A stretch of DNA of 64,000 nt. Origin: a virus (lineage: Duplodnaviria > Caudoviricetes). The notes under the pieces were generated by a model, which ran no database searches, had not been told where the DNA came from, and saw only the letters and a program-made list of their open reading frames with translations. The position numbers and the translations under genes are program-made. Each line of letters begins with the position of its first letter. Position 1 is the first letter of the stretch. Positions 450-54,232 of this stretch are shown here, in pieces. The stretch is from IMG/VR virus record IMGVR_UViG_3300029305_003961, positions 1 to 64,000 of that record; one strand, given 5' to 3'.

Positions 450-3376
450 TAAAAAGAAATTATATAATGAAGACTCAATAGAATCGCTCAATCCGTTGGA
501 ATTTACTCGTCTAAGGCCACAAGTCTACGCAGGCGATTGCACTTATTCTACTCAACTACTGGTAGAGATTTTATCTAATGCTATTGATGAGTTCAATTTA
601 GGGCACGGAACAGAAATTAATGTTGTTTTAAATAAAGATGTAGTTATCGTAAAAGACCATGGACAAGGTTTTATTGTAAATCATACAAGAGATGATGGAA
701 AAACTATCCTAGAGGCAGCATTCTCTGTTCTCAACACTTCTGGAAAATACCGTGAAGATGGAGCATATGAAGGAACTTCATTAGGTTCTTTTGGTATTGG
801 TTCAAAAATTACAACTTTTCTATCTCACTATTTGGATGTTATAACATTTAGAGATAAACAGTTTGAAAGAATATATTTTAAAGAAGGCGTATTTGATAAA
901 CGAGAAGTCGGAAAATTAAATGATAATACAACTGGCACCATTGTTAAATGGCAACCAAGTGAAGAATTCTTTACCCATACCGAAGTTGAAATCGGTAAAG
1001 TAAAAGAACTTCTAAAGACTATTGTTTGCTTATGCCCTGGTCTAACTATTAAATTGGACAATAATGGAGAAAAAACTGAATACTTTTCTCAAAATGGACT
1101 GCGTGATTATGTAGACCAAAAGGTAAAAGATAAAGAAATCATTGATAATAGATTTTACTCCAAATTCAAAAATGGTAAAGAATCTATTGATTTTATTCTT
1201 ACTTATACCACCTCTTATAATGGAACAATTATTCCCTATGTAAATACTGGTCTTACTGAAAAAGGTTCTCATATTACTCTTATCAAGGCGCTTATTACTA
1301 AAGAGTTTAATAAGTTTTTTAGAGACCAAAAGTGGTTGAAAGAGAAAGATGAGAACTTGACTGGTGAAGATATCGCAGAAGGTCAATATATTGTCTTTAA
1401 TATTACGGCTTCTGGCGTTGCTTATGACGCACAAGTTAAGAGTAATATCACTAAGATTGATATGAAGCCTTTTATTAATGGACTAACAGAAGATTTGCGG
1501 ACTTGGCTAGAAACTAATAAGAAAGAAATTAAAGATATTGCGGATAAGGCTATTAATGCTCGGAAGGCTCGTGAGGCCGCTAAGAAAGCAAAGGATACTG
1601 TTCGTAATAAGGCTGAAAAGAAACAAAAGGCTTTGAAGTTTGATAGTAAACTTGCCGATTGTTATAGTAAACAGCGTAGCAAATGTGAAATCTATATCAC
1701 AGAGGGCGATTCGGCGTCCGGCAACCTAAAGACCGCAAGAAATAACGAATTCCAAGCAGTTATGCCTGTTCGTGGTAAGATTTTAAATACTCAAAAGGCT
1801 ACTCTTGATAAGATTCAGAAAAACGCAGAAATTATGACACTTATTGATGCTTTTGGTCTTACAATTGACCCAAAGAGTATGAAAATTACTTATAACAAAG
1901 AAGATTTACGTTATGGTAAGATTATTATTATGAGCGATGCTGATGTAGACGGCGCGCATATCAAAAATCTTTTCTATACATTCATTTGGAATTTCTGCCC
2001 GCAACTAATTCTTGATGGATATGTTTATGCGGGTGTGCCTCCTCTCTATAAAATTACTATTGGTAAGCAATACAAATATCTGAAAAACGATGAGGCTTTA
2101 GAACAATTCCGTAAAGAAAATGCCGGTCGTAAATATATTGTTAACCGCTTGAAAGGGTAAGAGATAGTCTGGCCCTTAGCTACTTTTCCTCTAATCAGAG
2201 GGGTCACAGAAATGCGGCTAACGAGGTAGTCTTCAAAATTATTTGGACATTTTAGGATAATCTGAAATGTATAAAATTCATATAATATTGAAGATAATCT
2301 CGTGGGAAAAAACTACGAATTATCTTACTGAAACAAAAAAGGTAGGATATAAACAATGATTGGTATCTATAAAATTACAAATAAAATAAATGGTCATTCT
2401 TATATTGGCTTGTCAACAAAGGTTGAAGAACGTTGGAAATACCATTTATCTCCGTATAATCAAGAACGAGAAAGTCATAAAACATTGTATTAGGCTTTTG
2501 CTAAATATGGAGTTGAAAATTTTGATTTTGAAATCCTTGAAGAGTGTAAAATAGAAGAACTTGGAGCAAAAGAAAAATATTATATTGATAAATTTGATAC
2601 ATATCATAATGGCTATAATATGACAGCAGGTGGTGAAGATAATGTGGGTCAAAGCCATCCTGGTCATAAATTAAATTAGCGTGATGTTGAAGATATACGC
2701 ATTAGGTATAATAATCTTGAACGAAGAAAAGAAGTTTATAATCTTTATAAGGACCGAATTGGCGAAAGCGGATTTGGGAAAATATGGAAGGGTGAATCTT
2801 GGTAGCATATTATGCCAGAAGTTTACACTCCTGAAAACAAAGCGTTCCATTTACATAATACTGCTAATAAAGGCAGTTCAAATGGACGCACTCGATTAAC
2901 AGAAGAAGAAGTTCGAGTTATTCGCCTTAGGCGTAAAAATGGAGAACAATTAAAAGATGTTTATGAAGATTATAAAGATAAATTAACAAAGGGTTCATTT
3001 TCAAATATTTGGTGTTATTAGAATTGGAAAGATATCGTAGTTTAAACCTGTATCGACTATCCGCTTTGTCGCGGAGTAGAATTGTTATTGATACACAATT
3101 CGAAAAGGTAGCATCCTATGACGGCAATTAAAGCGTTAGCCCGAGGATAAGAAATAGTCAGTACCATCAGTAATGATGGAGAAATATGTAGGCGAAATGG
3201 ATGTTGAAGAAACAGAAGAAACTCTTACTGACCCAGAGAACAGAATTATCAAACAAATTACAGTTGAGGATATAAAGAAAGCAGACCAGTTATTTGAAGA
3301 TTTAATGGGTGCTGGAATTGCCCCTCGTAAAAAATATATTCAAGACCACAGTGCGGAGGCAACAGGAAATGTATAA
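442..3376 (+). CDS. gyrB: DNA gyrase/type IIA topoisomerase subunit B, spliced: join(442..2158,3189..3376), about 634 aa
   Basis: GHKL motifs (EILSNAIDE, DHGQG) and TOPRIM motifs (EGDSA, PVRGKILN, DADVDG) are present. The conserved R.KGLGEM motif is restored by joining AAA GGG T to TA GGC GAA ATG. Confidence 0.93.
2245..2290 (+). promoter_or_regulatory. Candidate phage-specific promoter motif (copy 1, inside the intron)
   Basis: GGAC-N9-TAA-N16-TTCATATAATATTG. Confidence 0.55.
2356..3045 (+). CDS. Intron-encoded GIY-YIG homing endonuclease, 229 aa, 4 in-frame TAG (2491, 2677, 2803, 3019)
   Basis: Reads MIGIYKITNKINGHSYIG...YGVENFDFEILEEC...GYNMTAGG, followed by two repeated helical DNA-binding-like units. 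It ends in TAA only if TAG is read through. Confidence 0.88.
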
Positions 3377-6001: not shown

Positions 6002-6034
6002 ATTTATGAAATAAAAGAAGGTGAAAAATTATAT

Positions 6035-6080
6035 GGGCGAAACAGATAAAATCATATTATGCTTTCTTGATAATATATAA
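6035..6080 (+). promoter_or_regulatory. Candidate phage-specific promoter motif (copy 2)
   Basis: GGGC-N9-AAA-N16-TTGATAATATATAA. Confidence 0.55.
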
Positions 6081-6096: not shown

Positions 6097-7023
6097 ATGA
6101 TTTTTAGAAAAGATTTAACTAATCAAACATATGGTTTTTGGACTGTCTTAGAGTTTGACCAAGAGCGAAGTGATAAAGAAAAAAGAACTTATTGGAAATG
6201 TTAGTGCGAATGTGGAACTATCGCAAGTGTTTTAGGTTATAATCTAACTTCAGGTACATCGAGGTCTTGTGGTTGTCAATCACATAATTTAAGAAAAAAT
6301 GACCTTATTGGTCAAGTTTTTGGTTATTTAACAGTGATTGAAGATACTAAAAAATTAACCAAAGGACGCAATGTTATTTGGAAGTGCAAATGCAAATGTG
6401 GCAATGAAATTGAAGTTCCTGCGGGATATCTAATAAAAGGGTCTACATCTTCTTGTGGCTGTTATAAAAAAGAAACATTAATGAAAGATTTAACCGGGAA
6501 ACGTTTTGGTAAGTTAGTAGTGCTAGAAGAAACTGACCAACGATTAAGAGATTATATTGTTTGGAAGTGCAAATGTGATTGCGGTAATATCTGTTATATT
6601 ACAAGTTGGTGTTTAAATAACGGCCATACAAATTCATGCGGTTGTTTAAAATCTAAGGGCGAAGCTAAAATAAAAAATATATTAGACTCATATAATATTC
6701 CCTACAATACTGAACATACATTTGCTGATTTAATTTCCATTAATGGAGCTCATTTAAGATTTGATTTTGCTATTTTAAACTCTGATAATACAATTAGTCA
6801 TTTAATTGAATATAATGGATAGCAACATTATGAATGCAGTGAGCAATGGTGGAATACACAAGATAATTTTTCTACTTTACAGTAGAATGATTTATTAAAA
6901 CAATAGTATTGTAAAAAAAATAATATCGATTTAGTTATTATTCCATATGATGAATATGATAATATAACGATTGAAAAATTATTAGGAGATAAATATGAAA
7001 GAAAAAATGCGACAATTGATTGA
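6097..7023 (+). CDS. Free-standing homing-endonuclease-like protein: three Cys-rich repeats plus a C-terminal PD-(D/E)xK/Vsr-like nuclease, 308 aa, 4 TAG (6202, 6820, 6883, 6904)
   Basis: SD AAGGAGG. Three copies of DL.G..FG.L.V...WKC.C.CG...SCGC, then RFDFAI..IEYNG*QHY..ND..K..YC...NI.L..IPY. The ORF overlaps the ligA start. Confidence 0.82.
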
Positions 7024-9281: not shown

Positions 9282-9758
9282 ATGGCAATGTCTGAAAATA
9301 GTGTTAAGATTCTAAATTTCTTAAAGGAAAATCACGGTAAGAACGTTACCAGCGCTGATGTCGCTGAGGCTCTTGACCTAGGTAAGAGCACGGTTAATGG
9401 CGCTTTCACCGCTATGCAGAAGAAGGGTTATGGTGTTCGCGTTGATGCTGAAGTGCCTGGTGTGGTTGAGGTTTCCTTCCTAACCATTACTGACGATGGT
9501 CGTGGTTGCGACACCGCTGAGATGGGTGAAACCGTTCAGAAGATTATGAATTATCTGGCTTCTGCTACCGACCATATTACTCTGGACGACCTGGCTACTG
9601 CTATTGACGTGAAGAAGAGCAGCGTTAATGGTTCTTTCAATGCTCTTGTGAAAAAGGGTCTGTGCGCTCGCACTCCCGCTAAGATTGAGACTATGGTTCC
9701 TGTGAAGTACCTAGTTCTGACCGAAGCAGGTTTGGCTCTGGACCCCGCTGCTGAATAA
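9282..9758 (+). CDS. Tandem winged-helix DNA-binding protein, 158 aa
   Basis: Two internal repeats: KILNFL...T.ADVAEALDLGKSTVNGAFTAMQKKG and KIMNYL...TLDDLATAIDVKKSSVNGSFNALVKKG. Confidence 0.75.
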   Translation: MAMSENSVKILNFLKENHGKNVTSADVAEALDLGKSTVNGAFTAMQKKGYGVRVDAEVPGVVEVSFLTITDDGRGCDTAEMGETVQKIMNYLASATDHITLDDLATAIDVKKSSVNGSFNALVKKGLCARTPAKIETMVPVKYLVLTEAGLALDPAAE

Positions 9759-12687: not shown

Positions 12688-13038
12688 TTGAAACAGGAAT
12701 TTATTGAGTTTTTAAATGCTTTAATGGATGCTGCTCCTGAGGTAGCAAAAGAAAAAATGACTTCAAACGTGAAGGCTTATATTGATACTTTAATGGATAC
12801 TAAGAATGATAAGCCAGTCTTAACTGATAGCGGCAAACAAATTCTTGTATATATGCGGGAACATTCTGATACTCCTATGTGGAAAGCACGAGACGTAGCA
12901 GAGGGATTGTTTATTTCTTCTCGTGGTGTTTCTGGTGCTTTGCGCAAACTAGTAAATGATGGCTTCTGCGAAAAAATGGGTGAATCACCCGTAGTTTATT
13001 CTCTTACAAACAAAGGTAAAGAATTTATTATTGAATAA
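12688..13038 (+). CDS. Winged-helix DNA-binding protein
   Basis: LTDSGKQIL.YM...KARDVAEGLFISSRGVSGALRKLV.DGF......P.VYSLT.KG. Confidence 0.75.
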   Translation: MKQEFIEFLNALMDAAPEVAKEKMTSNVKAYIDTLMDTKNDKPVLTDSGKQILVYMREHSDTPMWKARDVAEGLFISSRGVSGALRKLVNDGFCEKMGESPVVYSLTNKGKEFIIE

Positions 13039-18933: not shown

Positions 18934-18980
18934 GGTCAAAAAGTTACAATTTGTAACCTATGATTTTTAAAAATATAGTG
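18934..18980 (+). promoter_or_regulatory. Candidate phage-specific promoter motif (copy 3, before recJ)
   Basis: GGTC-N9-CAA-N16-TTTAAAAATATAGTG. Confidence 0.5.
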
Positions 18981-19011: not shown

Positions 19012-20766
19012 ATGAATTATCAACTAATAGCACCTAGGCTGCCCCACACTTCGGTTATAGAACAGGTGTTATTGAATCGAGGTATTCAAGCCTAGGATAT
19101 TAGACATTATCTAAATACAAGTGATAAAGACATTTTAGATCCAACTCTTATTGATAATATAAGAGAAGGGGCTAAAATGCTCATTTATCACATTTCTCAA
19201 GAACATAAAATTTTTATTTAGATAGATAGCGACTGTGATGGCTATACCAGTTCTGCTTTTCTAATCAACTATCTAAATAGTCTATTTCCCGGATTTACGC
19301 AAAATAATATATATTATCGTGTTCACGAAGGAAAATAGCACGGACTTATTCTTGAGACAATTCCAGAAGATGTGAAACTAGTTATAGCGCCCGATTCTTC
19401 AAGCAATGATTATGAAGTTCATTCAACTTTGCGTGAGCGGGGTGTTGACGTACTAGTAATAGACCATCACGAAGCAGAACGCATATCTGAAAATGCCTGT
19501 GTTATTAATAATCAACTTTGTGATTATCCAACCAAATCTCTTTCAGGCGTTGGTATGGTCTATAAATTTTGTTCTTATATTGATAGTTTGTTAGGTATAA
19601 ACAATGCTAACCAATTTGTGGACTTGGTTGCTTTAGGACTTATCGCTGACGTAATGCTAATGCGCGATTTTGAGACTAAGCACCTAATAAACATCGGTCT
19701 AAAACAAATTAACAATCCGTTTTTTAGGGGAATGACCATCAAAAATGAATATTCTCTAGGTGGCGGAGATATTACACCTTTTGGAGTGGCTTTTTATATT
19801 GCGCCATATATCAATGCGGTAACTCGATGTGGCACGCAAGAAGAAAAGCTCTTACTATTTGAGGCTATGTTAGATTTTAAAGCCTATGGACAGATTCCTT
19901 CAACAAAAAGAGGTTTTAAAGGAACATACGAGTCTCGAGTAGAACAAGCTTGTCGTAATTGCACAAATATCAAAAATAGGCAAAACAAAGCAAGAGACGC
20001 TAGCTTGAAGATAATTGAACAAATTATCAAAGAAGAAAATTTACTAAAAAATCAAATTTTAATTGTTCGCTTACCGGTCGAATGCGCAATTGATAAAAAT
20101 TTAACTGGTTTAGTAGCAACTAAAATTGCCAATCAATTTCAAAAGCCTACGCTTATTTTAAATGAAACTCGCGATGCGGAGACAAATGAATTGATTTGGG
20201 CGGGTTCTGGTCGTATATTTAGTCAAAGTAATTTCACTACTTTTAAAGATTTCTTAGAACAGTCTAATTATTTTGAAATGGCTCAAGGACATCAGGGCGC
20301 CTTTGGATGCGCAATTAAAGATGTTAATATTGATTCTTTTACAGAATATGCGAACTTAGAGTTAGTAAATTTTGATTTTACCCCAAAATATTATATTGAT
20401 TTAGAATACCAGGCTGAAACTTTAACACCAATAGATGTAATGAATTTGGCCAGTTATGATAATCTTTGGGGCCAGGGAGTGGAAGAGCCGTTTGTTTTAG
20501 TTAAAGGAATTAGACTTACCAAAGAAAATATTTCTTTACTAAAAGAAACCACTTTAAAAATAACACTTCCTGCTGATGGTCAAGATATTAGTTTAATTAA
20601 ATTCGGTTCGTCTAGGGAAGAGTATGATTTATTACACTCTGACTTAGGTTATGTTACTATTAATGTTATTGGCCGTTTCCAGAAAAACATTTGGAATGGT
20701 AATATTAGTCCGCAAATTTTAATAGAAGATTATGAAATTGTAGGAAGGGCAGTCTATTATTTCTAA
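19012..20766 (+). CDS. recJ: RecJ-like DHH-family ssDNA exonuclease, 584 aa, 3 TAG (19093, 19219, 19336)
   Basis: SD AAAGGAG. Motifs *IDSDCDGYTS, GK*HGL, IDHH, LSGVG, GLIAD, APYINAVTR, GSGR and GHQGAFG. DHH motif I lies upstream of the tracked ORF and requires TAG read-through. Confidence 0.9.
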
Positions 20767-28306: not shown

Positions 28307-28332
28307 AACACTACAAAAACTAAATATAGTGG
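28287..28332 (+). promoter_or_regulatory. Candidate phage-specific promoter motif (copy 4, before nrdD, overlapping the first NrdR-like box)
   Basis: GGGC-N9-TAA-N16-ACTAAATATAGTGG. Confidence 0.45.
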
Positions 28333-28364
28333 ATGCCCAAAAAAAATTTCACTATATTTAGTTT
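28317..28364. promoter_or_regulatory. Tandem NrdR-box-like operators (also a perfect 15-bp inverted repeat)
   Basis: AAACTAAATATAGTGG (28317-28332) and TCACTATATTTAGTTT (28349-28364) resemble the NrdR consensus acaCwAtATaTwGtgt. They are 32 bp apart and lie directly before the nrdD SD. Confidence 0.7.
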
Positions 28365-28377: not shown

Positions 28378-30666
28378 ATGCTAATAATTAAAAGAGATGG
28401 AACGAAAGTTCTTTTTAACAAACAAAAAATTATTGATGCTGTAAATAAAGCATTACTCGAAGTAGATGGTTGTCTATATGAAACTGAAACCGCTGAAGAA
28501 ATTGGCGAAGCAGTAGAAGCGCACGTTTTAGGTGCTGAAATAATTGGTGAAACTCTAACCGTTGAAGATATTCAAGACCGAGTAGAAGATTACCTTATGT
28601 AGTCCGAACGTCGCGATGTGGCTCGCGCCTATATTCGTTATAGATATAAAAAAGAGGTTGCTCGCAACTACAAAGATGATTTTATCACTGCTATTGGCGA
28701 AAAACTAAATGCTTCTAATGTTCAAAATCAAAATGCCAATCTTGATGAAAAATCTTTTGGCGGGCGTATAGGCGAAGCATCAAGTTATATGACTAAAGAT
28801 TATGCTTTAAATTATATACTATCTGATATGGCTCGTAAAAATCATTTAGAAAATATGATTTATATTCACGATTTAGATGCCTATGCGGTTGGTAGTCATA
28901 ATTGCTTAACTATTCCATTTGATAAACTATTGGCCGAAGGATTCAATACTCGTCAGTGCGACGTGCGTCCCGCCAATTCTGTAAATACTGCTTTCCAGTT
29001 AGTCGCAGTTATTTTCCAATTACAAAGCCTATGCCAATTTGGTGGTGTTAGCGCGAGCCACATTGACTGGACTATGGTTCCTTATGTGAGAAAGAGTTTT
29101 AAAAAACATTTTAAAGATGGGTTATACTACTGCCATAATTTTGTTTCAGATGCTGATAACTCTGGAGATGAAAAATTTTTCCAACTATTAGCAGAAACAC
29201 ACGGAGTTACCCAAGAAGAATATAATTCTATTCCAATAGACCATTGTTTTTATAGTAGTTCTGGACATCCAATGGCATACAAATATGCTATCGAAATGAC
29301 CGAGCGTGAAATTTATCAAGCAGTTGAAGCTATGTATCACAATCTTAACACTTTACAAAGTCGTTCAGGAAATCAGTTGCCTTTCACTTCTATCAACTAT
29401 GGTACTTGCACGCTTCCAGAAGGAAGAATGGTAACTAAAGCCATTCTTGATGTGTCTATTAAAGGTTTAGGTAAATTACATAAGACCTCTATCTTCCCTT
29501 GTGGTATTTTCCAAGTAATGAAGGGCGTAAATAAAGAACCTGGTACTCCAAACTATGATTTATATCGTTTGGCACTGCGTTCTACGGCTCAACGCCTATA
29601 TCCGAATTATGCTAATGTGGATTGGAGCGTAAATAAAGGATATAATCCTGACCGTCCATCCGAATATACAAGCACAATGGGTTGCCGAACATATAACGGT
29701 TTTGATATCAACGGTCTTGGCTTTGAGAAAGATGGCCGCGGCAATATTGCCCCCGTTACTATCATTATGCCCACTTTGGCAATGATGGCCAAAGAAAAAG
29801 TAATGAAAGAATGCGAACCCTTTGCCGAAGACTTAGAAGGTCAAACTCTTGATGAATTTATGTTCCTGTTGGAATCTAAAATCTATGAGGCAAAAGATAT
29901 GCTCCTTGAGCGTTATCGTTGGATTTGTTCTCAATCTCCCGACTCTGCTAAATTTATGTATGAGAATGGCGTAATGGCCGGTTATATCCCAGAAGAAGGA
30001 ATCCAAAGCGCATTACGGCACGGAACCCTTGTCATTGGCTCTCTTGGCTTAGCAGAAACTTTACAAATTTTAATTGGATGCGATCATACCACTCCTGCCG
30101 GCATGGGATTAGCCAAACACATTTATAAAAAGTTTAATGAACTTTGTGCTATGTTCAAAAAAGAACTTCATTTAAATTTTGGTGTTTATTTAACACCTGC
30201 TGAAAATCTTTGCCATACCGCAATGAAAAAGTTCCGTGAGAAATATGGTATAATTGAAAATGTCTCTGATAAAGAATTTTTTACCAATTCTACTCACGTT
30301 CCGGTGTGGAAGGAAATGAGTCCTTTTGAAAAAATTGATATTGAGAGTGAGTTGTCTGGATACTCTAATGCAGGATGTATTACTTATATTGAATTAGATT
30401 GCGGAGCAAAAAACAATATTGACGCATTGGAAACTTTAGTAAATTATGCTATGGATAAAGACCTACCTTATTTCGCAATTAATGTTCCTAATGATACCTG
30501 CCTATCTTGCGGATATTGCGATGAATTTAATGATAAATGTCCTGAGTGCGGCAGTGAAAATATTCAACAGTTGCGTCGCGTGACCGGCTATCTAACTGGA
30601 AATTATACAACTGCTTTTAATAAGGGTAAACAAGATGAAGTTCATCATCGCGTAAAACATTGTTAA
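28378..30666 (+). CDS. nrdD: Anaerobic (class III) ribonucleoside-triphosphate reductase with ATP cone, 762 aa, 1 TAG (28600)
   Basis: The ATP cone (IIKRDG..V.F...KI..A) continues in frame through DYLM*SERRDVARAYIRYR. Also IYIHDLD, HNC, MGCRT, CxxC...CxxC and the glycyl-radical loop RVTGYL. Confidence 0.95.
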
Positions 30667-32907: not shown

Positions 32908-32923
32908 TAAGGCCGATTTTTTT
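32893..32923 (+). terminator. Intrinsic terminator
   Basis: AAATCGGCCTT...AAGGCCGATTT followed by TTTT. Confidence 0.8.
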
Positions 32924-32956
32924 CATTTTATCCACTCTCTTTTTGATAATATATAG
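32911..32956 (+). promoter_or_regulatory. Candidate phage-specific promoter motif (copy 5, before the holin-like gene)
   Basis: GGCC-N9-CAT-N16-TTGATAATATATAG. Confidence 0.55.
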
Positions 32957-32998: not shown

Positions 32999-33454
32999 AT
33001 GGGTGAATGGATTGCTGCCAATATTGGTGGCATAATTTTATCTTTGATTACTGCCGGAGCATTGACCTTTTGCGGTTGGTGTTGGAAACAACTAAAAACT
33101 TATAAGGGATTGCTTGATGAGAAGAAAGAAGCAGCAATTGATGACGCAATTGATGAAAAAATTGAGCCTGTCAAACAGGATATCCAACAGTTGCGTGACT
33201 ATGTAACCTAGGTCGATGTGGCTGAAAAGCACAAGATGGACCTAATTGTTTCTTCTTATAGATATAGACTAACACAACTATGTCGTCTATACTTGGGACG
33301 CGGCCATATCACAACAGGTGAATATGAATAGTTAAATGAATTTTATCATCTGTATACTGGTTTGGGCGGCAATGGAGAGGCAAAAATTTGGTTTGATAGA
33401 GCCATTTAGTTGCCAATTGTTAACAATAATACTAGTAAAAATGAAGACAAATAA
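32999..33454 (+). CDS. Holin-like membrane protein (N-terminal TM helix, LGGNG motif), 151 aa, 3 TAG (33209, 33329, 33407)
   Basis: Hydrophobic IGGIILSLITAGALTFCGW, then a coiled coil, then YL.RG.IT..EY....E.Y..Y..LGGNG......LP. I recall this pattern from phage holin-like families. Confidence 0.65.
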
Positions 33455-40349: not shown

Positions 40350-43300
40350 TTAGCCAGTACTGCCTAAAATTTGTTTCATACCATACCACAATCGTAGCCA
40401 GCTTATAAATTTATAATCTGTATTAGACGCCGCACCATTGTTCCACTAATTAATTTCTTTTATGTATATACCTCTAGAAGTTAAAATTGGTATTTGATAC
40501 TAATAAGTAGATACACCATTGCTTACACTAGAATGGATTAAGGTGTTTTCATTAGCTTCATCTTCAGTTGACAAGGCCCAACCATCATATCCCGTTAGAT
40601 CAAAAGCAATAGAATCTATTGATGGTAAATTACTAGTATTAAATTTACTAATTTTCCAGCCTCCAATGTTTCCACCTTCTTTAGCTGTAATTGTACCTTC
40701 AATGGTTGCTCCTGTACAAGTTAACTCTCCGGTAGTTTCAACTTTAAAAGCATAGCCTCCGCTCGCTTTTTTGACTCCGAATGCAACTTTATTATCAAGT
40801 GCGCTCTTTAATCCATTAACACCAGATTGTGGAATTGTCGCTCCATCCACTAGCGTAAGTGTTTTAGCAATAATATCGCCTTTAACTGTTACGTTGCCAT
40901 TGCTTTCAATAGTAAAATTATCACCAAATTTAACTTTTGAAGAATTAATTGAGAATTTTCCATCACTGGCGCTAAAACTTCCACTAAGTACAGCTCCAGT
41001 AGCATAGAGTGTACCTTCTGAATCAACGCCAAAATTGGCTGAAGTACCCTTAATACCATTGCGACCCAAAAGTAAACGCCAATCATTTTTTTTCATGTTA
41101 GCTATCGTAACGTAGTCTGAAGTGGTCCAAGAATTATAAAAATAAGAAGTACCGCCCTCATCTCTTAATCCTTTATCGGCTATCATCCATCCGGCTATAT
41201 TTCCTTCATGCGCTGTTATAGTTCCAGAGAATGTTCCATTACCATGAATTGTAAGACCCTTTTCATCTATTATTAAAGCCTCTTTTGATGTTCCTCGCTC
41301 TGATAAAACGCTCCAACCGCCACTATTATTATTTAAATATCTTCTATATATAAAAGTAACTGTATCCCCCGCTTTTACTTCTGGAGCATATAGCTTGCTA
41401 CCCTCATACACTACATCCTCATAGCCTGTTGGTTTTTCCTCATGACATATGTCATTGGTATCAATAATTCTAATTGCTATAGCAGGTTTATTATCTTCGC
41501 TTTCTACACGCTCATTACCTTTCTTAAATACAACATCTAAAATTATTCCTTCATCATATAATTCGTAATCTTCTGAACCCTATTCTCTACCTATATAAGG
41601 GAATTCTGGAGGAACTCTAACCTCTTTAACCATCTCGTCTGGATCAGTCCAACATATTCCTTGCCATCCGGGTGATTCATTGCTTATATTAAAAACTGCT
41701 CTTCCTTTATTATCAACCGTAAAACGATTAGCAAAATTAATCCCATTGGAATTTACTATAAAATTACCGGCTTCTAATCCGCCTTTAAAAGTACCAAATG
41801 CACCAGTAATATCTCCTTTAAAAAAGGCATTACCATTAGCATCTATATAAAAGTTCTTACTATGCAAATCCCCATCTTTTAGGTTAATATACATACCGGC
41901 ATCTGTATAGCCATTTATAATATTTTGAAAATTTCCTGATTGAATAATACCTTGTGCGCCATCAAATTCAATGCGGCCCGCACCACTTTTGCCAATAAAT
42001 GCAGTACCATTATCACGAAAACCGTATACCTAAGCACCATCTTTATAACCATATAGCCCAGTATTATAACCAGTAGTAGCATCAATATTTTTTACATCAC
42101 CCAAAATAACACCACTAAAAGTATTGTTATTATTTTTCTTTACACCAAAAACAGCAGCCGCACTTAAAATTTGATTATTTTCTTCATCAATTGTTAATGC
42201 GCCATTCCAATTATTGAGAACTTCAGAACCATATTTATACTATTGTATAATAATTGGTTGAGTATATAAAATTTCATTATTATTACTTGCTATTAGTACA
42301 CAATAAGTTGCTTGTGCTTCGCTTATATAGATAGATGGTACCAATAATGAGCCATCTTTAATTTGTGGTAAAATGTTTAAATTACTAGGATTGGTTATCT
42401 TTTCATTTTTGTTATTACGATAAGAAATGCTCCAAGAACATTCAATTATTGTACCATCTCGATTAAATAACTGTAACTTTGGTATTTTAGTTTTTAAAGC
42501 ACCAAAGGAATCATAAATAATTTTTGTTGGTACTGAAGCATAATAACTATCATTTTGAGAATAAATAACTGGATAAATAGTTTTTAAGGTAATTTTTTGT
42601 CCTGCCCAAGTAATTAATGAGCCTTTGGCTGTTGCCACTATTGTATTATAATATTCGGGTAGGTGTTTGTTATTTTCATCTAAACCACTTGGCAATAATT
42701 CATAAGAACGCCCTAAAACGGTGTCTCCTTCAAGGCTGATATCTTTACCCTATGGGTCAATTAAATTAACATTAAAGTGTTGAATTAATGCTTCTCCATC
42801 TTTAAAGCCAAACTCGCGCCCATCATTTGGTCGGACAATGAGCGTATAATCTGTACCGCTATTACCCTAAGATGAAAAAGCCAAAGATTTTATTGCTGTT
42901 AATATAAATCCATTATGCTCAATAATACATGTAATTGTATTATTGCGCGCGGTATCTACATATACAGATTTTAATTTATACTAAAAAGTAGTAATATCAT
43001 CAAAGTTTTCTGAAGTAATTGTTTCAGATTCTATGTTCTTTGCTGATATCATTGTATTGTCATTTGGAATCGTCCAGGTAATTTTCGCTCCATACCAGTA
43101 TTCTTTTTCAATTTTACCAAGATTCCATTCCCAATCAAATTTTACTGTACGAGTTTTATAAGCCTCGCCAGCTATGGCTTGATTATCTTCTCCATAAATA
43201 GCATAAGCATCTTGCGTCTAATCACCATTTATAATTTTAATTTTAACATCAGTTCCTAACACTAAGTGTGTTTTGTCCGTATTATTAGTAAATGTTATAA

Positions 43301-44519
43301 TATTTGACTTATATTGTGTGCCATTCAGCCAGATTATAGCATATACATCAGTTGAAGCAAGTTGCGGAATACACTGAGCCACTAAAATTTGATTTTCTTC
43401 TATAGTTTTTTCTGAATTATATTCCTATACTGATTTGGAAACACCATTTTCTCCATCAGCATACCATTCAATCCAATAATAATTTTGGCCATCAGTAATC
43501 TCTTCTTCGCCTTTGGCCTTATCTTTATCAAATTTGCCGTCTTTAAAACCCAAAAATTTATTTCCCTCGCCCTTATTATACCAAATAAGTTCGATATATT
43601 TCTCCGCATCTTCTTTGCCCTAATATTTTAGAGAACTATTGGTTACAATTTTAACCGTATTGTCTTCCACTTGAGAGACATCAGTTCCAAAAAAGATTTG
43701 AATATTACGAACAAAAATATTTGACTAAACTTCATTATCAGAAATTTTATTAAAAGGAATGGCAATAGGTGCATCTTCAGTTCCATCATCGTAATAAAAA
43801 TTACCATCTTGATATAAATACCAAACAAGTCTTTTAATAGTTCCAATAGAGAAATTAAACTTATAGGCTTGGGATTGCGCGGCCCACGCGGCATAGGCGT
43901 ACGGACGTCCAAACATATCACGGCTACTGTCTAGCATAAAAGTAGCAATTTCTTTATCGTTCTCGTCAAACGCTTTTACCATTAGACCATAGGCGCCAGA
44001 TTCCATATCATAATTATCAAGTAAACATCTAAAATCTGCCTAAATACAAAGAGTATCATTTATTAAAGTATTTATAGGAGTTTCAATACTTCCAATCTCT
44101 TTAATAAGGGCTCCTGCGATTGGATTACCTTCACTATCATAACTACAGTTGGCGGCTACGTCAGCGCCACCGAAACCGTTCGCAAGGTTTTCGGTTAATT
44201 GCGCCACTTTTTCTAAAGGTGACACATAGGTGATAGGCTGGTTATCTTCGTCGCCAGTATAACGGCCGGTAATCAACTTGCGCGCCGTCCAATCTCCTTT
44301 GGGTATGGTTACATAAACCTACGCATCATTATAATAATGAGTTGTTTCCGTATACGCATCAAAGGTAATTGAACCATCAGTCACTTTATAATGTCCGTTC
44401 TTTTTATCACTGTCATCAACAATCGTACAGATAATAGTTTCATCGAATTGTAATTCTGATAAGCGCTATGCGACCACTGTATCAATTGCTGTCAATAATA
44501 TTTCATTATAATCCTTCAT
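40350..44519 (-). CDS. Large tail tip/central fibre protein, about 1389 aa, many TAG
   Basis: ORFs starting at 44276, 44006, 42695, 41894 and 41411 are co-framed. Motifs NTFSGVIFGDV, AFIGKSGAGRIEFDG and Gly-rich beta repeats (GTITAHEGNIAGW, GTITAKEGGNIGGW). Confidence 0.75.
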
Positions 44520-44547: not shown

Positions 44548-44593
44548 CTATTTATTATCAAAAATCTTCAATTTCAATTTGTTTATATCGTCC
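44548..44593 (-). promoter_or_regulatory. Candidate phage-specific promoter motif (copy 6, before the tail tip genes)
   Basis: The - strand reads GGAC-N9-AAA-N16-TTGATAATAAATAG. Confidence 0.55.
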
Positions 44594-44600
44594 TCAAAAG

Positions 44601-44645: not shown

Positions 44646-47600
44646 TTATTTTTTACGATTAGCAAATTGAGACGCGCGGTTGATAAGAGTATCAAAGGCT
44701 GCTTCAATTTCACCACGATTAGTTGCGTTCGGGAATTCTGCGTGAATTGTAACTTCTTGTTGTAGAGAGTTATTTGATGGCATTACTGCCGGTCTATACA
44801 TCTCGTTTAAAGCGGCCTATTGAGCGGCTGCCCGCAAATCTATTACGTGAGAAATATCTCTTATAATATGAATTGCTGATAAGAAGTTTTCTGTATCATC
44901 GGCATTCAGAACGATTTCCTTTTGGTGAAGCATCGCTAGACGTCCTCCAGAACCCCAAGCGCCTGTATAACCGCCAGTGTCGAACTAATCCCACGTCACT
45001 GGGGTGCGTGGTCCCCCGCCTGTGTAAAGGGCTCGAGCAATTATATTGGGAGTAATTCCTAATTCTTTTGCCATTAATCTGGCAATTTCTTCTTTAATAT
45101 AAAAAGTTCTTCCACCATAATTAAAATAACCATAATCCTAATGGTCGTCAATTATTAAACCATTAATATCACTCTTTCGTACTGTAAGCCCGGTATATGC
45201 ACCTTGTCCAGTTTTACCATCTTCTTTATTAAAAAAAGCTTTCTCTACGTGGAACGTAGTTTCAGGGGGGTTGGGCTCCTCAGGTGGATTGGGCTCTTCG
45301 GGCGGAATTGTGCCCTCAGGCTTTCCTTTATTTGGGTCTCCTTCTTCCGGATTATAATCACCAGAAAGGTCTGGTTTTTCTTCAACGACACGTTTGTATA
45401 AAGCCAAAATATTTGAAATACTTGATGCAACTTCATTGTTTTTATTTATAACTGCCTAAACGGTATTAGAATATTTAGTTGCCCAAGTACTAGCCTCATC
45501 TAAAATTTTATCATAAGCAGTGTCAAACTTTGTTTCCATATCGGTAGCAGACTACGCAGTATCTTTATTATCCTATTGAATGTCTTTAGTTTTTTCATCA
45601 ACAGTTTTCTCAAAATTTTCGACATCTTTACCAGCCAGGTCAAAAGCAGTATTTACATCATTTTTCCAATCAGAATAATGTCCCGCTAAAGCGTCTAGCA
45701 AAATGTCACTATTAGTAACAAAATTACTTAACGCGCCTTCGGCAGTGGTATAACCAGTAGTCTAAGCATAAATAGTTTCATTAAAATTATCGCGCCATTC
45801 AATTTCTTTACTAATTTTATAGCCAGTTTTTTCATTGTAGGCTAGCCAGTCATTCTGATAAATATAGGCGCTATCTTCTATTGCGCCATTCATTTGCTTT
45901 AAGTGATACTCGTACAAACCGGTGTAATAAGCACGCACTTCTTCGACCGCCCTCAAATATTGCTCCTCAGACTCATAAGCATTTTTATCAATAGCAGCAA
46001 TTGCATCAGCCATCTAAGCAGGAATTTCAATAAGGGCCGATTCCATTTCATCAATATAATTTTGAGTTAACTCTTGATAAGCATAAAGTTTATCTTCATA
46101 TCCCTACTGGGCTCCTGCAACAGCATCCTAATCAGCAGTATAAACATAACTCCAATTGCCTTCACTATCACGACGCATACGAACTTGAGACTTAGCATTT
46201 TGCGCCTCTTCAAGAGCAATTTCAGCCAGCCTTAATTCATAACGAGCGCGTAATTCATCCACTTCATACTGGGTCATTTCAGTATTAGATTCTTGAAGAT
46301 TATTAATTTCTTCTTGTAAATCTCTTAACTTAGTTTTGGCTACCACGCTATCAGTATCATCTATGGATTTGGTTAAATCTCTATTTAATTTAGATAACTC
46401 ATAAATTTTCTAATAATCATCCAAATAACGCTCAGAAATTTCTTTCTGCTACTCAAATCGCTGAGATAGTACATCATTGGAGCCAGCAATACCAGCCATT
46501 GCATCTTTAAACGTTTGAACTGTATTATTGACAGCTTCATCAAACGCATCTGCCGCTGCCTACAAGGCATTTTCCCAAGAGGACATAAATGCTTCTTCAG
46601 CAGAAGTTAACTCTTTTTCCAAATTTTTAATTGTTTCATCCCAACGAGTTTTTTCTTCATCGCTTAACTAATCAGCAATGGCATTATATTCTGCTAAAGT
46701 ATCATCATATATAGCTTTATTGGTATCGAATTTAGCCTTCGCCGCTTGTAATTCAGCTTGAGCCCCTTCTACAGAAGCACGAGATAAATTAGCCATAACC
46801 TAATCACTAATACCTAATGCGTCTTGCCCCACTAAATCAATAATATTACGATAATTTTCGAGTAAAGAGTTATTGTGTGAAATAGATTCACTTTGTTCAT
46901 CTAGTTTAGAATTCATTTCCTCGACAGCTGCGACCACTTTTTCGTGAACAGTATCGCCTATATTATTTAACTCTTCATTAGCCTCCCAAAGAGCCTCTTG
47001 ATATTCAGTAAGTGCACTAACTTGTGCATTAGTTAACTGCTTACCATCTAAAACTGACATATTGCCACCAATAAGGGCTTCGATATTCGCATCTGTTAAA
47101 CCGCTTTGGCTAAAAGTCTTATAGATACCGGTTTCATAAGCTTCTATTTTTTTCAGGGCCAGTTCTGCTTGCTAACCTAAAGTAGCAATAGCATCAGCGG
47201 CATCATCAATTGGATCATCAAGATTTTTTAATTGATGTTCTAAAGCATTAAATAGATAACCAATTTTTTCTACCGTATGCTCGACCACATATTGAATTTC
47301 TTCTATTTTAGAATCAGCAATTTCATTATTTTTATCAAGAAGTTTCTACTACTCTTCTTCTAATCCGTTTAGAGATGCTTCATACTATTTTACAGCTTTA
47401 ACAAATTTTTCATATTCTTCTTCATCGCCTGAGATATTATACTTGTCAATTTGAGCCTAATAAAGTTCTTCATAGTTAGTAATGCGTCCGTGTGAATCGC
47501 GTCCCGCGCCATATTCTGCTAAAACGTCCCAGTCTTTATTGACATCCTCCCTCATTGCCTTAACAAGGGCTTCCTAAGTTGCCAATTGCTTCTCCAAAAC

Positions 47601-50600
47601 CACTTGCTCTTGCTTCATATAAGCAAGTTTATCAGGACCCCAGGCACGGTCTTTAGCATCAGTAATGCGCTTATATTCGCGTTCTAAATCAGATAAAGTT
47701 TCTTTTATATAGTGATATCTTTCAATTTCATCATCTATGCGCTTATTGCGCTTTTCAATATCTTTTAAGATATTGTCATTAATAATATCCGTAGCATTAC
47801 CTATATACTATAATTGACCAATAATACCATCTTTATCAAAGTAAGCCTAATAGCCATAAGAAGCCAAAATGGTTTGAGCCTATTCTCCAGTTAATTTTAA
47901 AGAGGTAATCAAACCCTATGCCCACTTTGTTAATTCGCTATTGCTATCAAATGTAGCGCCAATTTTTAAGCTATTTGCATTTGCATAAGTCTATAAAACA
48001 TTTAAAATACCCTAAATTTCACCTGGTAACTATTCAAAATTAGTTATACCAGTAATTTCTAAAACTATTTGTTCTCCAGCCGCGTCTCTAAGTTTCTCAA
48101 TAGCTTCAAGGTCTCCTGTAACCGCAGCACCAATTAAAGCCTAGTATTCTAAAATAAAATTATCCGATAAATATTCATCAGATATATCTAATAGATTGCT
48201 TAAAGCGGTTTTAGTTTCTTCCATTGCCTAAGTGTATTGGGAAGTACCAAATCCACTATTAATACCTTGAGACCAATTACTCCAATTATTTACTAAATCT
48301 TCTAAACCATTATTAATTCGCAGATGTGCTTGAGCAACCTGTAGAGCATAAACCTTATTGTTTTTTAAATCTTCACTAACGGTTTCAACGGCTCCAGCCA
48401 TTTCATATAAAGCTTCAGCGTGAGTTTCTACCTATTCACTATCAATTCCAAGTGCTTTATTTTCTGTTTCTAACTATTCAATAAATTTAGCTTCTGCTTC
48501 TGCTGCTTCTTGCATTTTGGTCTCATACTTATCTATTGACTAGCGTTTTTCATTGGCCTCATTATAGGCTTTAACAGCTTTGTCGGTTTTAATTTGAATA
48601 TCACTATCTTCGAAATTTGGAATATAAACATCTTTTATCCATTTATAAAATTTTGAACTATCCTACTCATCAAAAGTGCCGACTTTTTTAGCCTATGCAA
48701 TTAAAGTATCAACAAAATCCTTGGGCAATCCTATGCGCTCAGGATCGGTTAACCACTCTCGTATATCCTCTTCTGTCTCGGCTACACCAGTTATAGAAGA
48801 AGAATTAGGCAAAGTTTTATCTCTAAAAAACTAATATTGCTCTGACTAGAGAATATCTCGTTTAGCTTCTAGCTCTTCTTTTTCTACTTGTAACTTATAA
48901 ACTTCTGCTTCGGTTGGAACATTTTCCAATTGTGCCTAGGCTTTTGCATATTCTTGTTCAGCAATCTGTAATCCCTATACCACTTCATAAGTGGATTGAG
49001 TTTGAGAGCTACTGCGACTCTATTCAATAAGTTCTAAAACTTCTCTATCAGATTTTTTAAGCCATTCGGTTTTTTCTTCTATCGTGAGGTCTTCTTTATT
49101 TTTACCCAAGAAAGTAGCCACTTGAGCCAAATAAGCCTCACGACCCTATCCTTCTCCAGTGCCCCATCGATTATTGCTTGTTATAAATTTTGTAAATTTA
49201 TCATTGGCGGTAATATTTAAACCAATCTATTGACTTTCCCACCACTCTTTACCAATCTCAAAAGCATCTTTAAATTCATTTAAAGTCTAATCTTTATCTA
49301 AATCTAATTTCCATAATAAAGTCTAATCATCCTCAGAAAGAGAATTATACCATTGCTCAAAACCATTAGGCATAGATTTAAGCATTTCCGTAATATAATT
49401 CTCAATTGCAACTCTTAAATTTTCATTTGAAATAGTAGAAGTATCAAGCCTTAATAATGTACCTAAATTATCTACATTAAAATTATCTAGTGTGCCAGTA
49501 TCTTCATTATAAGCGGATAAAATACTATTAATAAGAGTTTGAACCGCTCCACCAGCTTTTAAATTTTCAACAGCCGCTTTAGTTTCCGATACTAATAAAT
49601 CAATATAATTTTCTTGATCCTATAAAGTTTTCCATTCACCGTATATTTTAGCTATCTCATTTTGATGATATTTATCTTTTTCACCCTGATTAACCCAGTT
49701 ATCATTTTCATCTTTCTTTTGAAGAGTCCAACCTACTCCGCCAAGGTTTGTAAAGCGATATTGCTCTGGGTCATATCCCATTGCCTTTATGGCTTCAGTG
49801 GCCCATTCACTTTCATCGCCCCATCCGGATAAACCTGAAAGAAATTCTTCTGCATATTTAGCATTACTTGCTTCAATTTCCTCTTTAGAATAAGCTCTTT
49901 CAGCGACATATGAGCTATTTACGTCATTAAGCTTATCTGAATACATAGCAATAAAAGCATTTTTCCAATCAGTTTTTTCTTGTAAGTTTTCTTTATTTAT
50001 TTGTTTTGTTAATTCTTTAAGAGCTTCGCTATTTTCAACTAAAGAATTAATAAGTTTTATATCTTTAATCCCTAAATCATCTAAGGATTTTCGTAATTCA
50101 GTTTCAGACGCAAAAACAGCATAATTGCTTTCTTCGGCCTTGGCAGCTAAGTCTTCTAACAGCTATTTTTCCGCTTCAGTATCTTGGTCTAATAGAGCTC
50201 CTGTAATTCCACCGGCTGCAAGACCAGCAGCAGCAGCACCTGCAATAATAGGTAAAGAGGCGCCTGCGGTCATTATGGTTAGAACAGTAGCGGCTAAAGC
50301 TGCAGTGGCCGCTCCACCAAGTCCTAAAGCTCCAGCGGTTCCAGCACCTTCTGCAGAACTTTGCATAGATTTTTGTGCAAAACCGACTTTATCAGCCTCT
50401 AATCGCGCCTAATCAGCCTAGCTAGAACTTAAAATTTTAGCACTTTGCGCATTTAGTAGTTTTTTCTATTCTAAACTCTATGCACGCTCTAGCTCTGCCT
50501 CTGAAATATTAATTAAGCCATTTTCATCTATTGTATAACTTAATTCATCCTATTTTTCCAAAAGTGCCATGGCGGATTCATTAGCCTCTTGGATTGCATC

Positions 50601-53600
50601 ATTATATTCAAGAGTACCTTTTGTTAATTCCTTTAGGCCCTCTCTTGCGGATTCATAGTTAGAAACAGTATTATTAAGTTCTTCATAACTAGCTTTGGCT
50701 TCGTCAAAACCGGCACTAACTGCTTTTGCCAGAGCTTTGGCTTGTTCAGCAGCTTTTTCTTCTTTTTTACGGTTAGCATCTACAGCAGTTGCCATAATAG
50801 CAATTCCTGCAACAACAATAGCTATAGCGGCTGCTATACCACCCATAGTCATTAATAATTCTTTACCGCTGGTAGATAAGGCTGGTATATTTGATTTTCC
50901 AGCTTTTCCCTGTACTCCATTTACCACAGTATCTTGAACCTAAGCAGCAGTTTCCTTTTTTTGTTCTTTTTTCATGGTATTGGATGCGGCTGCAGTCTTA
51001 AGTTTTTGCTTTTCTAAACGTTTTTCAGAAGCTTCATTAAGCATATTAATCATAGAGTCTTTTAATTTGGCTTGACGAAGTTCATTAAATGCACTAACAG
51101 CCATAGGAAGCACCATGCCCAACGAGGTACTAATACTTAAAAGTTTATCTCCCCAAGACATGTCCTCATTATTTAAGACATCTAGCGCGCCCTTTAAAGT
51201 ACTTAATACCATAGTTATTGTCATCGTCATATTGGCAACAAACTATAACCTTTGGCCAAATTCCATGGCATAAAAACTACTATCTCGTAAAATAGGACTT
51301 AGCCCTTCTAAAGCCTAAGATTCAGCCATAATATGCTTCTAAGTTTCTCCAGCTCCAACTCCTGCTTGTCGCTATCCTTGAATAAATTCATCAGTAGCAC
51401 CATTGACTTTTGCCTATTGAACTGCATTTTGTTGTAATACATCGGTCTATGATTCTAACGCATTATTTTTTTGTCTTACATTTTCTAAAGCCTAATTTGC
51501 TTTATCTTTAGCAACATCAACATCCTATCCTGATTGTTCAGCTTTTTCTAAATCTAATAAAGCCTATTTGGCTTCTTTTACAGCATTTGCATACTCCTTA
51601 TATTCTTCTCCTAAGTCTTTACCAACTGTATTTTGTAACTAATCAGTTGTACCTTCTGCAGTGGCACCCAATCCCTTAAGGCGAGATTCTAATTCAGTAA
51701 GACTCTTCATCTGCTAAGTAGTATTACCCACTCCACCATTAGCAATAGATGCAAAAGCGCTTTCATTTGAAATTGAAATGGCACTATTTATTTCTGCGGC
51801 CGCAGATGTCTGTTTTATCTAAGTAGCAGATTTATTAAATTCCTACTATGAAGTTTGAATTGCATTAACATCAGATGGAGTTATATTTCTAAGGGCTTTT
51901 GTAGCATTTGCTTTTTGAACACCCGCCTAAGTTCTTAAGCTTTTAATTTCATCGTCTGTGCCACCCTTACCCTCCAATTCCGCTATCTAATTTAGTGTGG
52001 CTTTTAATTTTTCAAGATTCTATAAATACTTCTATACTTGAGTACTTGAATCTCCAAACATAGATGTTAACTCTTCTTCTGTGGAATTAGCACTAATTCC
52101 TAATTCTTTAAATTTCTATTCAACCTATTGTACATCGCTAACAGTCTTAAGGTTTTTAGTCTCAGAAGGAGCTATCTATTTAACCTAATTTATATTTTGA
52201 TTTATATTTTGAGCCTATCTAATTTGACTATTAAATTCTAGATTTTTAGCATATTTTGCCTTATTAGCATCGGTATCTAATTGCATATTTCTAGTAAATT
52301 CTTCTGAGCTATAATATCTTTCATCACTTTTTTCTCTTTCACTCATCTAAACTTCAAAAGCAGCTTTTTGAGTTTCAGTTAAATTTTGTGATTTTTCATT
52401 AAATTCCATTAAAGTTTTTGCTCGGTTTTTAGCACTTTCATTTTGGGCTCCTTCTAAACCATATGAACTAGAATTAAACATATTATTTGCAGCCCATTCT
52501 TTCTACTCTGCCATTTTTTGTCTACCACTAGAAGTTAATGACATAACATTGTTTGCTATAGCAGTAGCACCCGCTGCAATCTATGGAGAAAAAGTGCGTA
52601 ATAAAGCAGTACCAACCAAAGCTAATACGCCTGGTAAACCTCCTAGACCTTCAATCATTTTATCTAAAAGATTTAAAAATCCGGTAAAAGTATCTAATAT
52701 ATCAATAAAAAATTCATCATCTAGTAATTTGCTATAAATCGCTTCCAAAGCCGCTGTCACTCGGTCTGCCGCCGCTTCCCAAGATTCAGCATAAATATCC
52801 TACTATTCTTGTAGCGTTCCAGAAGAGGCATTCGCAGTATTTAAATTTTCCTAGAAATAAGACCAGTTATCCATCAAAGCAATCAATTGAGAGTATTGGC
52901 GTACGCCGGCAACAGTTTGCGCTACAGATACCTACTATGCCTTAGATAGAGTATCCCACTTTTTGCCCATTTCATCCAAAATATCATTCATATCTTTCAG
53001 ATTACCATTAGCATCTAAAATATTAACCCCAATAGTAGCAAGACCTTCTGAGTACTAACCTAAAGTCACTCCATCTTCTAAAGTATTTCCAAGCTCCAAA
53101 TCTTGAATACGGGCAAATAAGGTTTTAAAGGCGGTACCAACTACATCCGCACTCTAACGAGTTGTTGCGGTAACAGTTGCTAGTGCCGCAGTGGCATATT
53201 CATAAGACAGACCTACTGTATTTGCAATGGCAGCAAATTTTTCTAGACCCTCAGAAATCTCATCTGAACTAGAGGCTGTCGCTGCACCCAAAGCAGTTAA
53301 TACATCGGCATAATACTCAAGACTTTTAGTTCCATCATAGAAGTTGTTCCAAACTGCTGTTAATTGGTCAGAAACAGTCTCAACAGATTGTCCAGTAATA
53401 TTGGCTAATTTAATTGTTGTTTCTGCGCGCTCCTATGCCTCTTTCATATTTAAACCCTGTTGGAAATAAATCAAAGAAGCATCGGTCATAGCGGTTGTTG
53501 TTGTACTTAATGCTTTAGCGGCTCTATTTGCCTCATTAGCAAACTCTTTCATTTCTTCAGCACCATAATTGGTAACAATACGAATATTATTTAAAGAGGT

Positions 53601-54107
53601 ATTTAATTCTTTAGTATAATCTACTGCTTCACTTATGCCCTAAACAAATCCCATGATAACACTAGAAGATAGTTGATATCTTAAAGTGTTCATAAAAGTG
53701 GCACCTAAGCGCTATATTCCCTTACTCAAGTTTAGTACTGGCGCTTCGGCAGTGGCAATTGAATAAGCCAACTTATTAAAAGCCTACTGTCCCTACGGAC
53801 CAATGGCTGTGAGTTGGGCTTTATATTTTTCAAGTGTCATTCCACTACTTTTTAATTCCTAATTAAATTTTACTAAATTTAATTTTCCTGTGTCTGCGTT
53901 GAAAGCATTTTGTAACTGAATGCGTAATTGTGCCGCAGCCTAAGAGGCTTTATTCAAATCGGCGGCGTACTAAGTGCCTACGGACGAATGCATAGAAGTG
54001 CTATTAATCTATGCCAAAGAACCTTGTAATTCAGACATAGCTCTTTTAGCAGCACTTACATCAGCACTAAATTTAAGATTTACACCTATAGTTTGATTAC
54101 TTGCCAT
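44646..54107 (-). CDS. Tail tape measure protein, about 3153 aa, dozens of TAG
   Basis: Eight tracked ORF fragments share the frame from ATG 54107 (SD GAAAGGAG) to TAA 44646. Shows an N-terminal TMP domain (LNTSLNNIRIVT, LIYFQQG, VGTAFKTLFAR), central hydrophobic helices and C-terminal FDTGGYTG.W...G.LAMLHQKE.VLN. Not every codon was checked for TAA or TGA. Confidence 0.88.
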
Positions 54108-54135
54108 AATTAAGTTCTCCTTTCTCTCAACAAAA

Positions 54136-54170: not shown

Positions 54171-54186
54171 ATCGAAATTTTCTTAT

Positions 54187-54232
54187 CCAATTATTTTCAA
54201 AAATTGGAACTATTAATTTATCTAGTTAGACC
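54187..54232 (-). promoter_or_regulatory. Candidate phage-specific promoter motif (copy 7, before the tape measure gene)
   Basis: The - strand reads GGTC-N9-AAA-N16-TTGAAAATAATTGG. Confidence 0.5.

Follow-up and report, generated by a model that had tools for sequence, protein, structure and literature searches.

The stretch of DNA analyzed here (the window) comprises 64,000 nucleotides (nt), the first 64 kb of the 96.7-kb IMG/VR virus record IMGVR_UViG_3300029305_003961 (Duplodnaviria; Caudoviricetes), the completeness of which is put at 59% by CheckV. The subject is a short, promoter-like motif with invariant spacing, seven copies of which were assigned to TAG-containing genes in an earlier note made from the sequence alone. 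The guanine-plus-cytosine (GC) content of the window is 35%, and 5% of it is intergenic. TAG is a sense codon in the late genes; the tape-measure gene, for example, has 3153 codons, 94 of which are TAG. Both the genome layout and the length of the tape-measure protein (ca. 3150 amino acids) agree with the phAss-1 group of recoded gut phages, in the description of which promoters are absent (PMC10607447). The DNA polymerase of the phage is most like YorL of SPbeta (38%), and strong GGAGG ribosome sites point to a Gram-positive-like host.

Many relatives at 75-90% identity turned up in the database comparison. In what follows, the studied record is labeled G000, and the other G numbers and the L numbers denote genomes or sequences of relatives. 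The closest relative, G001, is 75-89% identical over positions 1-45 kb of the window, and G002 is ca. 75% identical over 10-34 kb. The tail-tip and chaperone-like proteins retrieved no relatives when used as single queries against IMG/VR, whereas an alignment query did. A megablast search of INPHARED gave no match.

The seven sites and the form of the motif

All seven copies were found where the earlier note had placed them, and each has, on its own strand, GGNC and an AT-rich box separated by exactly 28 nt. Positions within the motif (p) are counted from the first G of GGNC. The copy at 2245..2284 (+) has GGAC, AA at p15-16, TT, and the hexamer CATATA, with TATAAT two bases on; it is located in an intron-like insert, before a GIY-YIG endonuclease gene (2356..3045, 4 TAG). 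The copy at 6035..6074 (+; GGGC, AA, TT, GATAAT) precedes the gene for a free-standing, DUF2726-like endonuclease (6097..7023, 4 TAG), and that at 18934..18973 (+; GGTC, AA, TT, TAAAAA) precedes recJ (19012..20766, 3 TAG). Upstream of nrdD (28378..30666, 1 TAG), the copy at 28287..28326 (+; GGGC, AA, AC, TAAATA) has its GGNC in Trp-Ala codons. The fifth copy, at 32911..32950 (+; GGCC, AT, TT, GATAAT), is found before a small holin-like gene with a membrane-protein-like product (32999..33454, 3 TAG). The remaining two are on the minus strand: 44554..44593 (GGAC, AA, TT, GATAAT) is situated between the tape-measure gene and the tail-tip gene (40350..44519, 15 TAG), the latter encoding a 1389-amino-acid tail protein, and 54193..54232 (GGTC, AA, TT, GAAAAT) between a chaperone-like gene (54218..54754) and the tape-measure gene (44646..54107, 94 TAG), its GGTC being the Gly175-Leu176 codons of the former. 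The identities of the downstream genes thus agree with those given before, and every copy is co-oriented with its TAG-containing gene. Three qualifications apply: a terminator intervenes between the 54232 copy and the tape-measure gene, the 6035 copy is contained in a mini-open reading frame (mini-ORF), and the AT box of the 28287 copy doubles as the first box of an NrdR-type operator.

Written as GGNC-N28-TTNAWAWWWW, the motif fits six of the seven sites; the 28287 copy keeps the spacing, and its box starts with AC (ACTAAATATAG). This pattern has 8 matches in the window (five of them wholly intergenic), compared to 1.6 +/- 1.3 in 100 dinucleotide shuffles. The sequence that three copies were said to share, TTGATAATAWATA, is indeed common to 6067, 32943 and 44561. 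A central element described as “mostly NAA” was recovered as AA at p15-16 in 6/7 window sites, and also in 12 of 19 non-redundant sites in relatives that were found without requiring AA. The downstream box was borne out as an AT box, but its conserved part is a -10-like hexamer that begins two bases into the box as first drawn, and the TTGA is not conserved. The refined consensus is TtGGnCaAaa (through p8), atTAA(t) (p12-17), a T-run (p31-34) and nAtAAt (p35-40). The hexamer therefore begins 30 nt after GGNC, and TTAA is found ca. 10 bases after GGNC. Hexamer position 2 is A in 29/29 aligned sites; position 6 is T in most aligned sites and in 4/7 window copies.

Conservation, spacing and association with TAG

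At four orthologous intergenic sites, GGNC is exactly 30 nt upstream of the -10-like hexamer (nAtAAt) despite differing spacers, terminators and coding context. Before nrdD, the distinct upstream sequences aligned by their GGNC (10 rows) all have GGNC-N28-ACTAAATATAGTG, and this GGNC is part of a gene or lies between genes depending on the lineage; among 17 rows with an NrdR-type box, GGNC is missing in two and off by one base in one. Between RuvC and the holin-like gene, GGNC-N30-hexamer is kept in G001, G002, G009/G010, G004/L015, L068 and L024; the hexamers, that of the window included, are GATAAT, GATATT, TAAGTT, CATAAT, CATAAT, TATATT and CAAAAT. The context of this site varies: a terminator arm begins with GGCC in the window (terminator 32894-32923, 3' arm) and in G001, G002, G009 and G010, an arm ends with GGAC in G004, and in L068 and L024 the GGTC belongs to coding sequence. 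The tape-measure/tail-tip site, which in the window directly follows a terminator (44596-44633), is kept in G001 with ca. 13 of 28 spacer bases changed (hand count) and no indel, and it is kept also in the distant G007 and G008. At the chaperone-like/tape-measure site, the spacing is retained in L234, L242, L235 and G010 though the length of the C-terminal tail of the upstream protein varies; the Gly175-Leu176 codon pair is invariant in that protein. Finally, a recJ-type geometry (GGAC-N30-TAAAAT), orthologous as judged by position only, is found ca. 8.9 kb upstream of nrdD in L018/L064, at the place taken by recJ in the window. A mixture of NrdR operator, terminator arms, codons and degenerate extended -10 elements had been considered for the seven sites; this reading was dropped because the orthologous sites in relatives keep GGNC and the spacing.

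The spacing was also examined without reference to orthology. For relatives only (2.66 Mb), 1189 unique intergenic hexamers of the form [CGT]A[AT]AAT were collected, each no more than 110 nt before a co-oriented start. GGNC was located 30 nt upstream of 22 of them, whereas the 79 remaining distances gave 5.4 +/- 2.9; overlapping hexamers probably explain a shoulder in the histogram at 33-35 nt. Four whole genomes yielded 15 cases at 30 nt vs. ca. 5 at other distances. A tripartite pattern, GGNC-N10-AA-N16-TT-NA-N3-W, has 11 matches in the full record, compared to 3.8 +/- 1.9 after shuffling, and seven or eight of the 11 are intergenic; beyond the window, copies occur at 69774(-) and 92861(-). 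The four whole relatives that were not used for defining this pattern contain 31 intergenic and 16 coding matches. The corresponding densities are 2.34 and 0.14 per 10 kb per strand, a 17-fold difference, and 27 of the 31 intergenic copies are co-oriented with the next gene, with four anti-oriented. The possibility, raised beforehand, that the motif is as frequent inside genes or on the opposite strand as expected by chance was thus not borne out. Positions left free by the tripartite pattern also carry information. The hexamer is 29-116 nt before start codons. A search of IMG/VR with the exact box TTTGATAATAWATAG was uninformative: among the matches listed, which came from unrelated viruses, GGNC was at the expected place in 0/80.

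These counts bear on the view that the seven sites are a chance or heterogeneous set, in which AT-rich boxes follow GGNC sequences supplied by terminator arms, codons and an operator. It is true that GGNC coincides with a terminator arm at 32911, with Gly-Leu codons at 54232 and with Trp-Ala codons at 28287, that the 28287 box is also an NrdR box, and that the pattern was defined after the fact. However, the spacing survives changes of context, and the spacing peak, the intergenic enrichment and the 27:4 orientation were obtained from genomes outside the pattern definition. A chance origin is therefore regarded as very improbable.

The promoters of the phage had also been proposed to divide according to the TAG content of the genes that they head. 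The consensus sigmaA promoters are near-perfect (TTGACA-N17-TGnTATAAT) and strongly conserved. One of them, at 54798-54826 (-), is a near-perfect TTGACA-N17-TATAAT in the middle of the virion block that heads the TAG-free chaperone-like gene, and it is kept clade-wide (L234-L239, L223-L232). In six genomes, the next gene contains TAG for 21/28 motif matches, compared to 34/130 consensus sigmaA promoters (Fisher, 3e-6), and in relatives the next gene does so after 19/27 motif matches; these figures count orthologous sites repeatedly and use our own rough gene calls. An association was thus obtained, but not a clean split, because exceptions occur both ways: a consensus sigmaA promoter heads the 6-TAG gene 69759..70820 (ca. 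70.9 kb, outside the window), and the motif copy at 69774(-) heads a TAG-free gene.

Promoter character and the putative reader

The hexamer is TATAAT-like, with A at position 2 and mostly T at position 6, as in a sigmaA -10 element. The -35 position reads (t)TAAt and has neither the G nor the C of TTGACA. Nor is an extended -10 element present, as TT, not TG, precedes the hexamer in the conserved register. An alternative register, TGaTAATAT, is available in three window copies only, and orthologues do not retain it (TTCAAAAT in G001, TTTATAAT in G007).

At nrdD, the motif is combined with a tandem NrdR-type operator (28317..28364, +). Box 1 (28317-28332), which overlaps the hexamer of the 28287 copy, and box 2 (28349-28364) are separated by a 16-bp linker. 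NrdR operators consist of two 16-bp boxes with C4, A6, A8, T9, T11 and G13 and a linker of 15-16 bp, upstream of a ribonucleotide reductase gene, and the boxes are placed in promoter regions (PMC13584703). Both boxes found here have all six key bases, so that the element resembles the operators of bacterial ribonucleotide reductase operons in its two boxes, its linker and its position upstream of nrdD. Only the nrdD copy of the motif has such boxes. The operator therefore accounts for that copy alone, and it is superimposed on a motif whose GGNC stays 28 nt upstream of box 1. An NrdR-type operator upstream of nrdD is kept in many relatives. Phage genomes were searched for an NrdR gene and none was found, which makes host NrdR the likely controller; a host repressor thus probably controls the anaerobic ribonucleotide reductase of the phage.

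Because this operator is laid over the hexamer, the motif has the look of an initiation site. It looks promoter-like also because the mobile endonuclease units each bring their own copy. The intron-like insert (ca. 1.0 kb, ca. 2161-3188) with the GIY-YIG gene is missing from G001, whose matching interval is ca. 1.0 kb shorter, as would fit a mobile intron; an Rfam scan of the window gave no family at gathering score, group I intron included. The second unit, an endonuclease cassette (within 5973-7023), directly follows the start codon of the ancestral ligA, and G001 is without it. Its motif copy at 6035 is inside a 15-codon mini-ORF (6033-6080) that begins at the ancestral ligA ATG. Elsewhere in the G001 genome (23000-23340, L096), a 39%-identical endonuclease paralogue has its own motif copy and a similar mini-ORF.

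The arrangement of terminators and promoters around the copies could instead indicate a loading or pause site like that of lambda Q. GGNC would then bind a factor and the hexamer would act as a sigma-dependent pause, the result being read-through of the virion-operon terminators; some other DNA-binding function is included in this alternative. The late-region copies do adjoin intrinsic terminators: those at 32911 and 44593 come after a terminator and that at 54232 precedes one, and relatives share this order. The 6035 copy, moreover, is 60 nt downstream of a sigmaA promoter (5973-6001). However, no terminator is next to the nrdD, recJ and intron copies and no promoter is upstream of them, an NrdR operator over the hexamer fits initiation, and the motif is the sole upstream signal of the mobile cassettes. 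A pause site is accordingly judged improbable.

A further alternative is that the sites are weak host sigmaA promoters (TTAAT-N16/17-nATAAT) that operate without a phage factor. GGNC would serve as a contact upstream or be bound by a host protein, and low constitutive initiation would take place after terminators and before mobile genes, with no temporal switch. The retention of A2 and (mostly) T6 and the placement of TTAAT at -35 distance are as this account would have it; the searched genome record has no match to a phage sigma or a known late activator, and neither nrdD nor recJ is a late gene of the classical kind. On the other hand, GGNC is the best-conserved part of the motif, and it is not known to be a contact of sigmaA or of UP elements. 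At the -35, the G and C of TTGACA are missing, in contrast to the near-perfect other promoters of the same genome, and the association with TAG genes points to a separate regulatory class. Factor-independent promoters of this kind are considered unlikely.

The most likely reading, partly supported by the sequence comparisons, is that the motif before the amber-recoded genes of this phage and its relatives is a second, factor-dependent promoter class. The earlier note had posited a second, non-sigmaA, middle/late class read by a phage sigma factor or activator; a promoter-like class with fixed geometry that is conserved, intergenic, co-oriented and TAG-preferring is upheld, whereas no sigma70, RinA or ArpU homologue was found in this 59%-complete record. 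In our estimation, the motif is probably a family-wide promoter class served by host RNA polymerase (RNAP) and a phage factor, and its units would fire after that factor has been made. Were the hexamer the -10 element, GGNC would fall at about -46 to -43, and TTAAT would occupy the -35 place without the G and C of TTGACA. Host sigmaA RNAP would recognize the hexamer, and a DNA-binding protein of the phage, which either activates transcription or remodels sigma, would bind GGNC(AAA), compensating for the missing -35. The motif units would fire only once the factor had been produced from an early, TAG-free gene with a consensus promoter. Since these units mostly contain TAG, transcription control and the amber-to-glutamine switch would bear on much the same set of genes. 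The motif, its geometry, its conservation, its placement and orientation and its association with TAG are observed; that transcription starts at the sites, when it does so, and that a factor exists and which one it is are what we infer from these features.

Several observations weigh against this reading, in addition to the repeated counting in the TAG statistics and the 6-TAG gene under a consensus promoter mentioned above. The profiles Sigma70_r2, r4 and r4_2 have no match in this 59%-complete record. Among four complete motif-bearing relatives, sigma70-like genes are present in two (G003, G010) and absent from two (G004, G007). RinA/ArpU profiles (TIGR01636, TIGR01637) have no match in G000, G001, G003, G004, G007 or G010. 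Three window copies (2245, 18934, 28287) are without T at hexamer position 6. The 6035 copy leaves a leader of only ca. 16 nt, and the 54232 copy has a terminator (54132-54169) within ca. 25 nt downstream, which is odd for a plain promoter.

The sigma70-type factors of the two relatives are full-length (G003: L101, 1309-2205, with regions 1.2, 2, 3 and 4; G010: L295, 39566-39724).

Phage RNAP (PF00562; YonO of SPbeta) had no match in five genomes, T7-type RNAP not being included in the search; the lack of RNAP beta and YonO-like genes implies host RNAP. Two products are put forward as candidate readers only, both encoded under consensus promoters. The first is a TAG-free protein with two winged-helix (MarR-like) domains (9282..9758, +; sigmaA promoter 9186-9214). 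Its N-terminal domain is kept, at 51-60% identity, in 5/5 relatives (G001, G003, G004, G007, G010), and a PDB sequence search with the protein returned nothing significant. The second is a small TAG-free product (12757..13038). A more specific version of the proposal, which is possible but doubtful, envisages a polymerase-redirecting system of phAss-1-like gut phages. An early protein (e.g. 9282..9758) would bind GGNCAAA, which is one helical turn away from the crippled -35 on its upstream side, and pass host RNAP on to the TAG genes. Late expression would need two keys, the transcription factor and amber suppression, and the homing endonucleases would have captured the signal.

Known systems and neighboring features

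No published description of this signal was found. T4 middle promoters combine a MotA box with a sigma70 -10 and are read after sigma appropriation by AsiA/MotA. The present motif is like them in having a host-type -10, no usable -35 and a short phage-specific box at a fixed distance, and in occurring beside strong consensus early promoters. It differs in the location of the box (GGNC(AAA) at about -46 to -43, compared to (a/t)3TGCTTtA at -30 in T4), in the extra TTAAT at the -35 place, and in the Gram-positive-like host; moreover, no MotA or AsiA gene is known in the phage.

Late promoters of phages of Gram-positive bacteria are served by RinA/ArpU/Ltr-type activators or by phage sigma factors (SPO1 gp28, gp33/34). 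A phage-specific signal before morphogenesis and lysis genes and the use of host core polymerase are common to those systems and to the one proposed here. The differences are that no RinA/ArpU homologue was found, that this record, G004 and G007 have no sigma70-family gene, that the consensus is not known to match the SPO1 sequences, and that nrdD, recJ and homing endonucleases are among the genes preceded by the motif.

The T4 late promoter, TATAAATA, is read with gp55, gp33 and gp45. Some copies of the motif contain ATAAATA and share the AT-rich, -10-only appearance of T4 late promoters, but the conserved information lies upstream (GGNC, TTAA), where T4 late promoters have none. TATAAATA itself has 21 matches, five of them intergenic and none co-oriented with a late gene. 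A T4-like late 8-mer, ATAWATAG, was tried and rejected; it occurs 24 times in all, three times between genes, with no intergenic enrichment. In the late control of lambda (PR'-tR'/Q), a promoter is followed by a terminator before the late genes. The 54232 copy is similar in that a promoter-like site is followed immediately by a terminator before late genes; this arrangement is found at one motif copy only, and no Q gene is known in the phage, no search aimed at one having been made.

Amber-recoded gut phages are thought to delay their late and lytic genes through the code change, and we know of no description of how their transcription is organized. A conserved promoter class that tracks TAG would offer a testable handle on the code-switch idea, with defined bases, a fixed spacing and few early, TAG-free DNA-binding candidates. 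The motif may serve as an annotation marker for transcription units in a large group of uncultivated phages, and it presents a case in which a host-type NrdR operator and homing-endonuclease cassettes are built onto what would be one promoter scaffold.

The 18934 copy before recJ overlaps a weak sigmaA-like sequence, TTGTAA-N17-TATAGT (18951-18979), which is followed by GGG. The recJ leader contains ATAGTGGG..GATACCTTGAAAGGAG, kept in G001 and G002, and may carry a further signal.

At the junction between the chaperone-like and tape-measure genes (54132-54207, -), an AT-rich hairpin, a strong intrinsic terminator and a conserved leader, GAGAGAAAGGAG, occur in an order that is kept across the clade. 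A small inverted repeat, CCAATT..AATTGG (54187..54207, -), overlaps the hexamer of the 54232 copy, and its arms covary in relatives (CTAATT/AATTAG in L235; CCTAATTTT/AAAATTAGG in L225). The hairpin-terminator-leader arrangement may set or gate tape-measure expression.

Beyond the window, the GC content is higher in a block at ca. 71.5-90 kb of the record, where the genes are short, GC-rich hairpins occur, and the TTGACA-type promoters are of another flavor.

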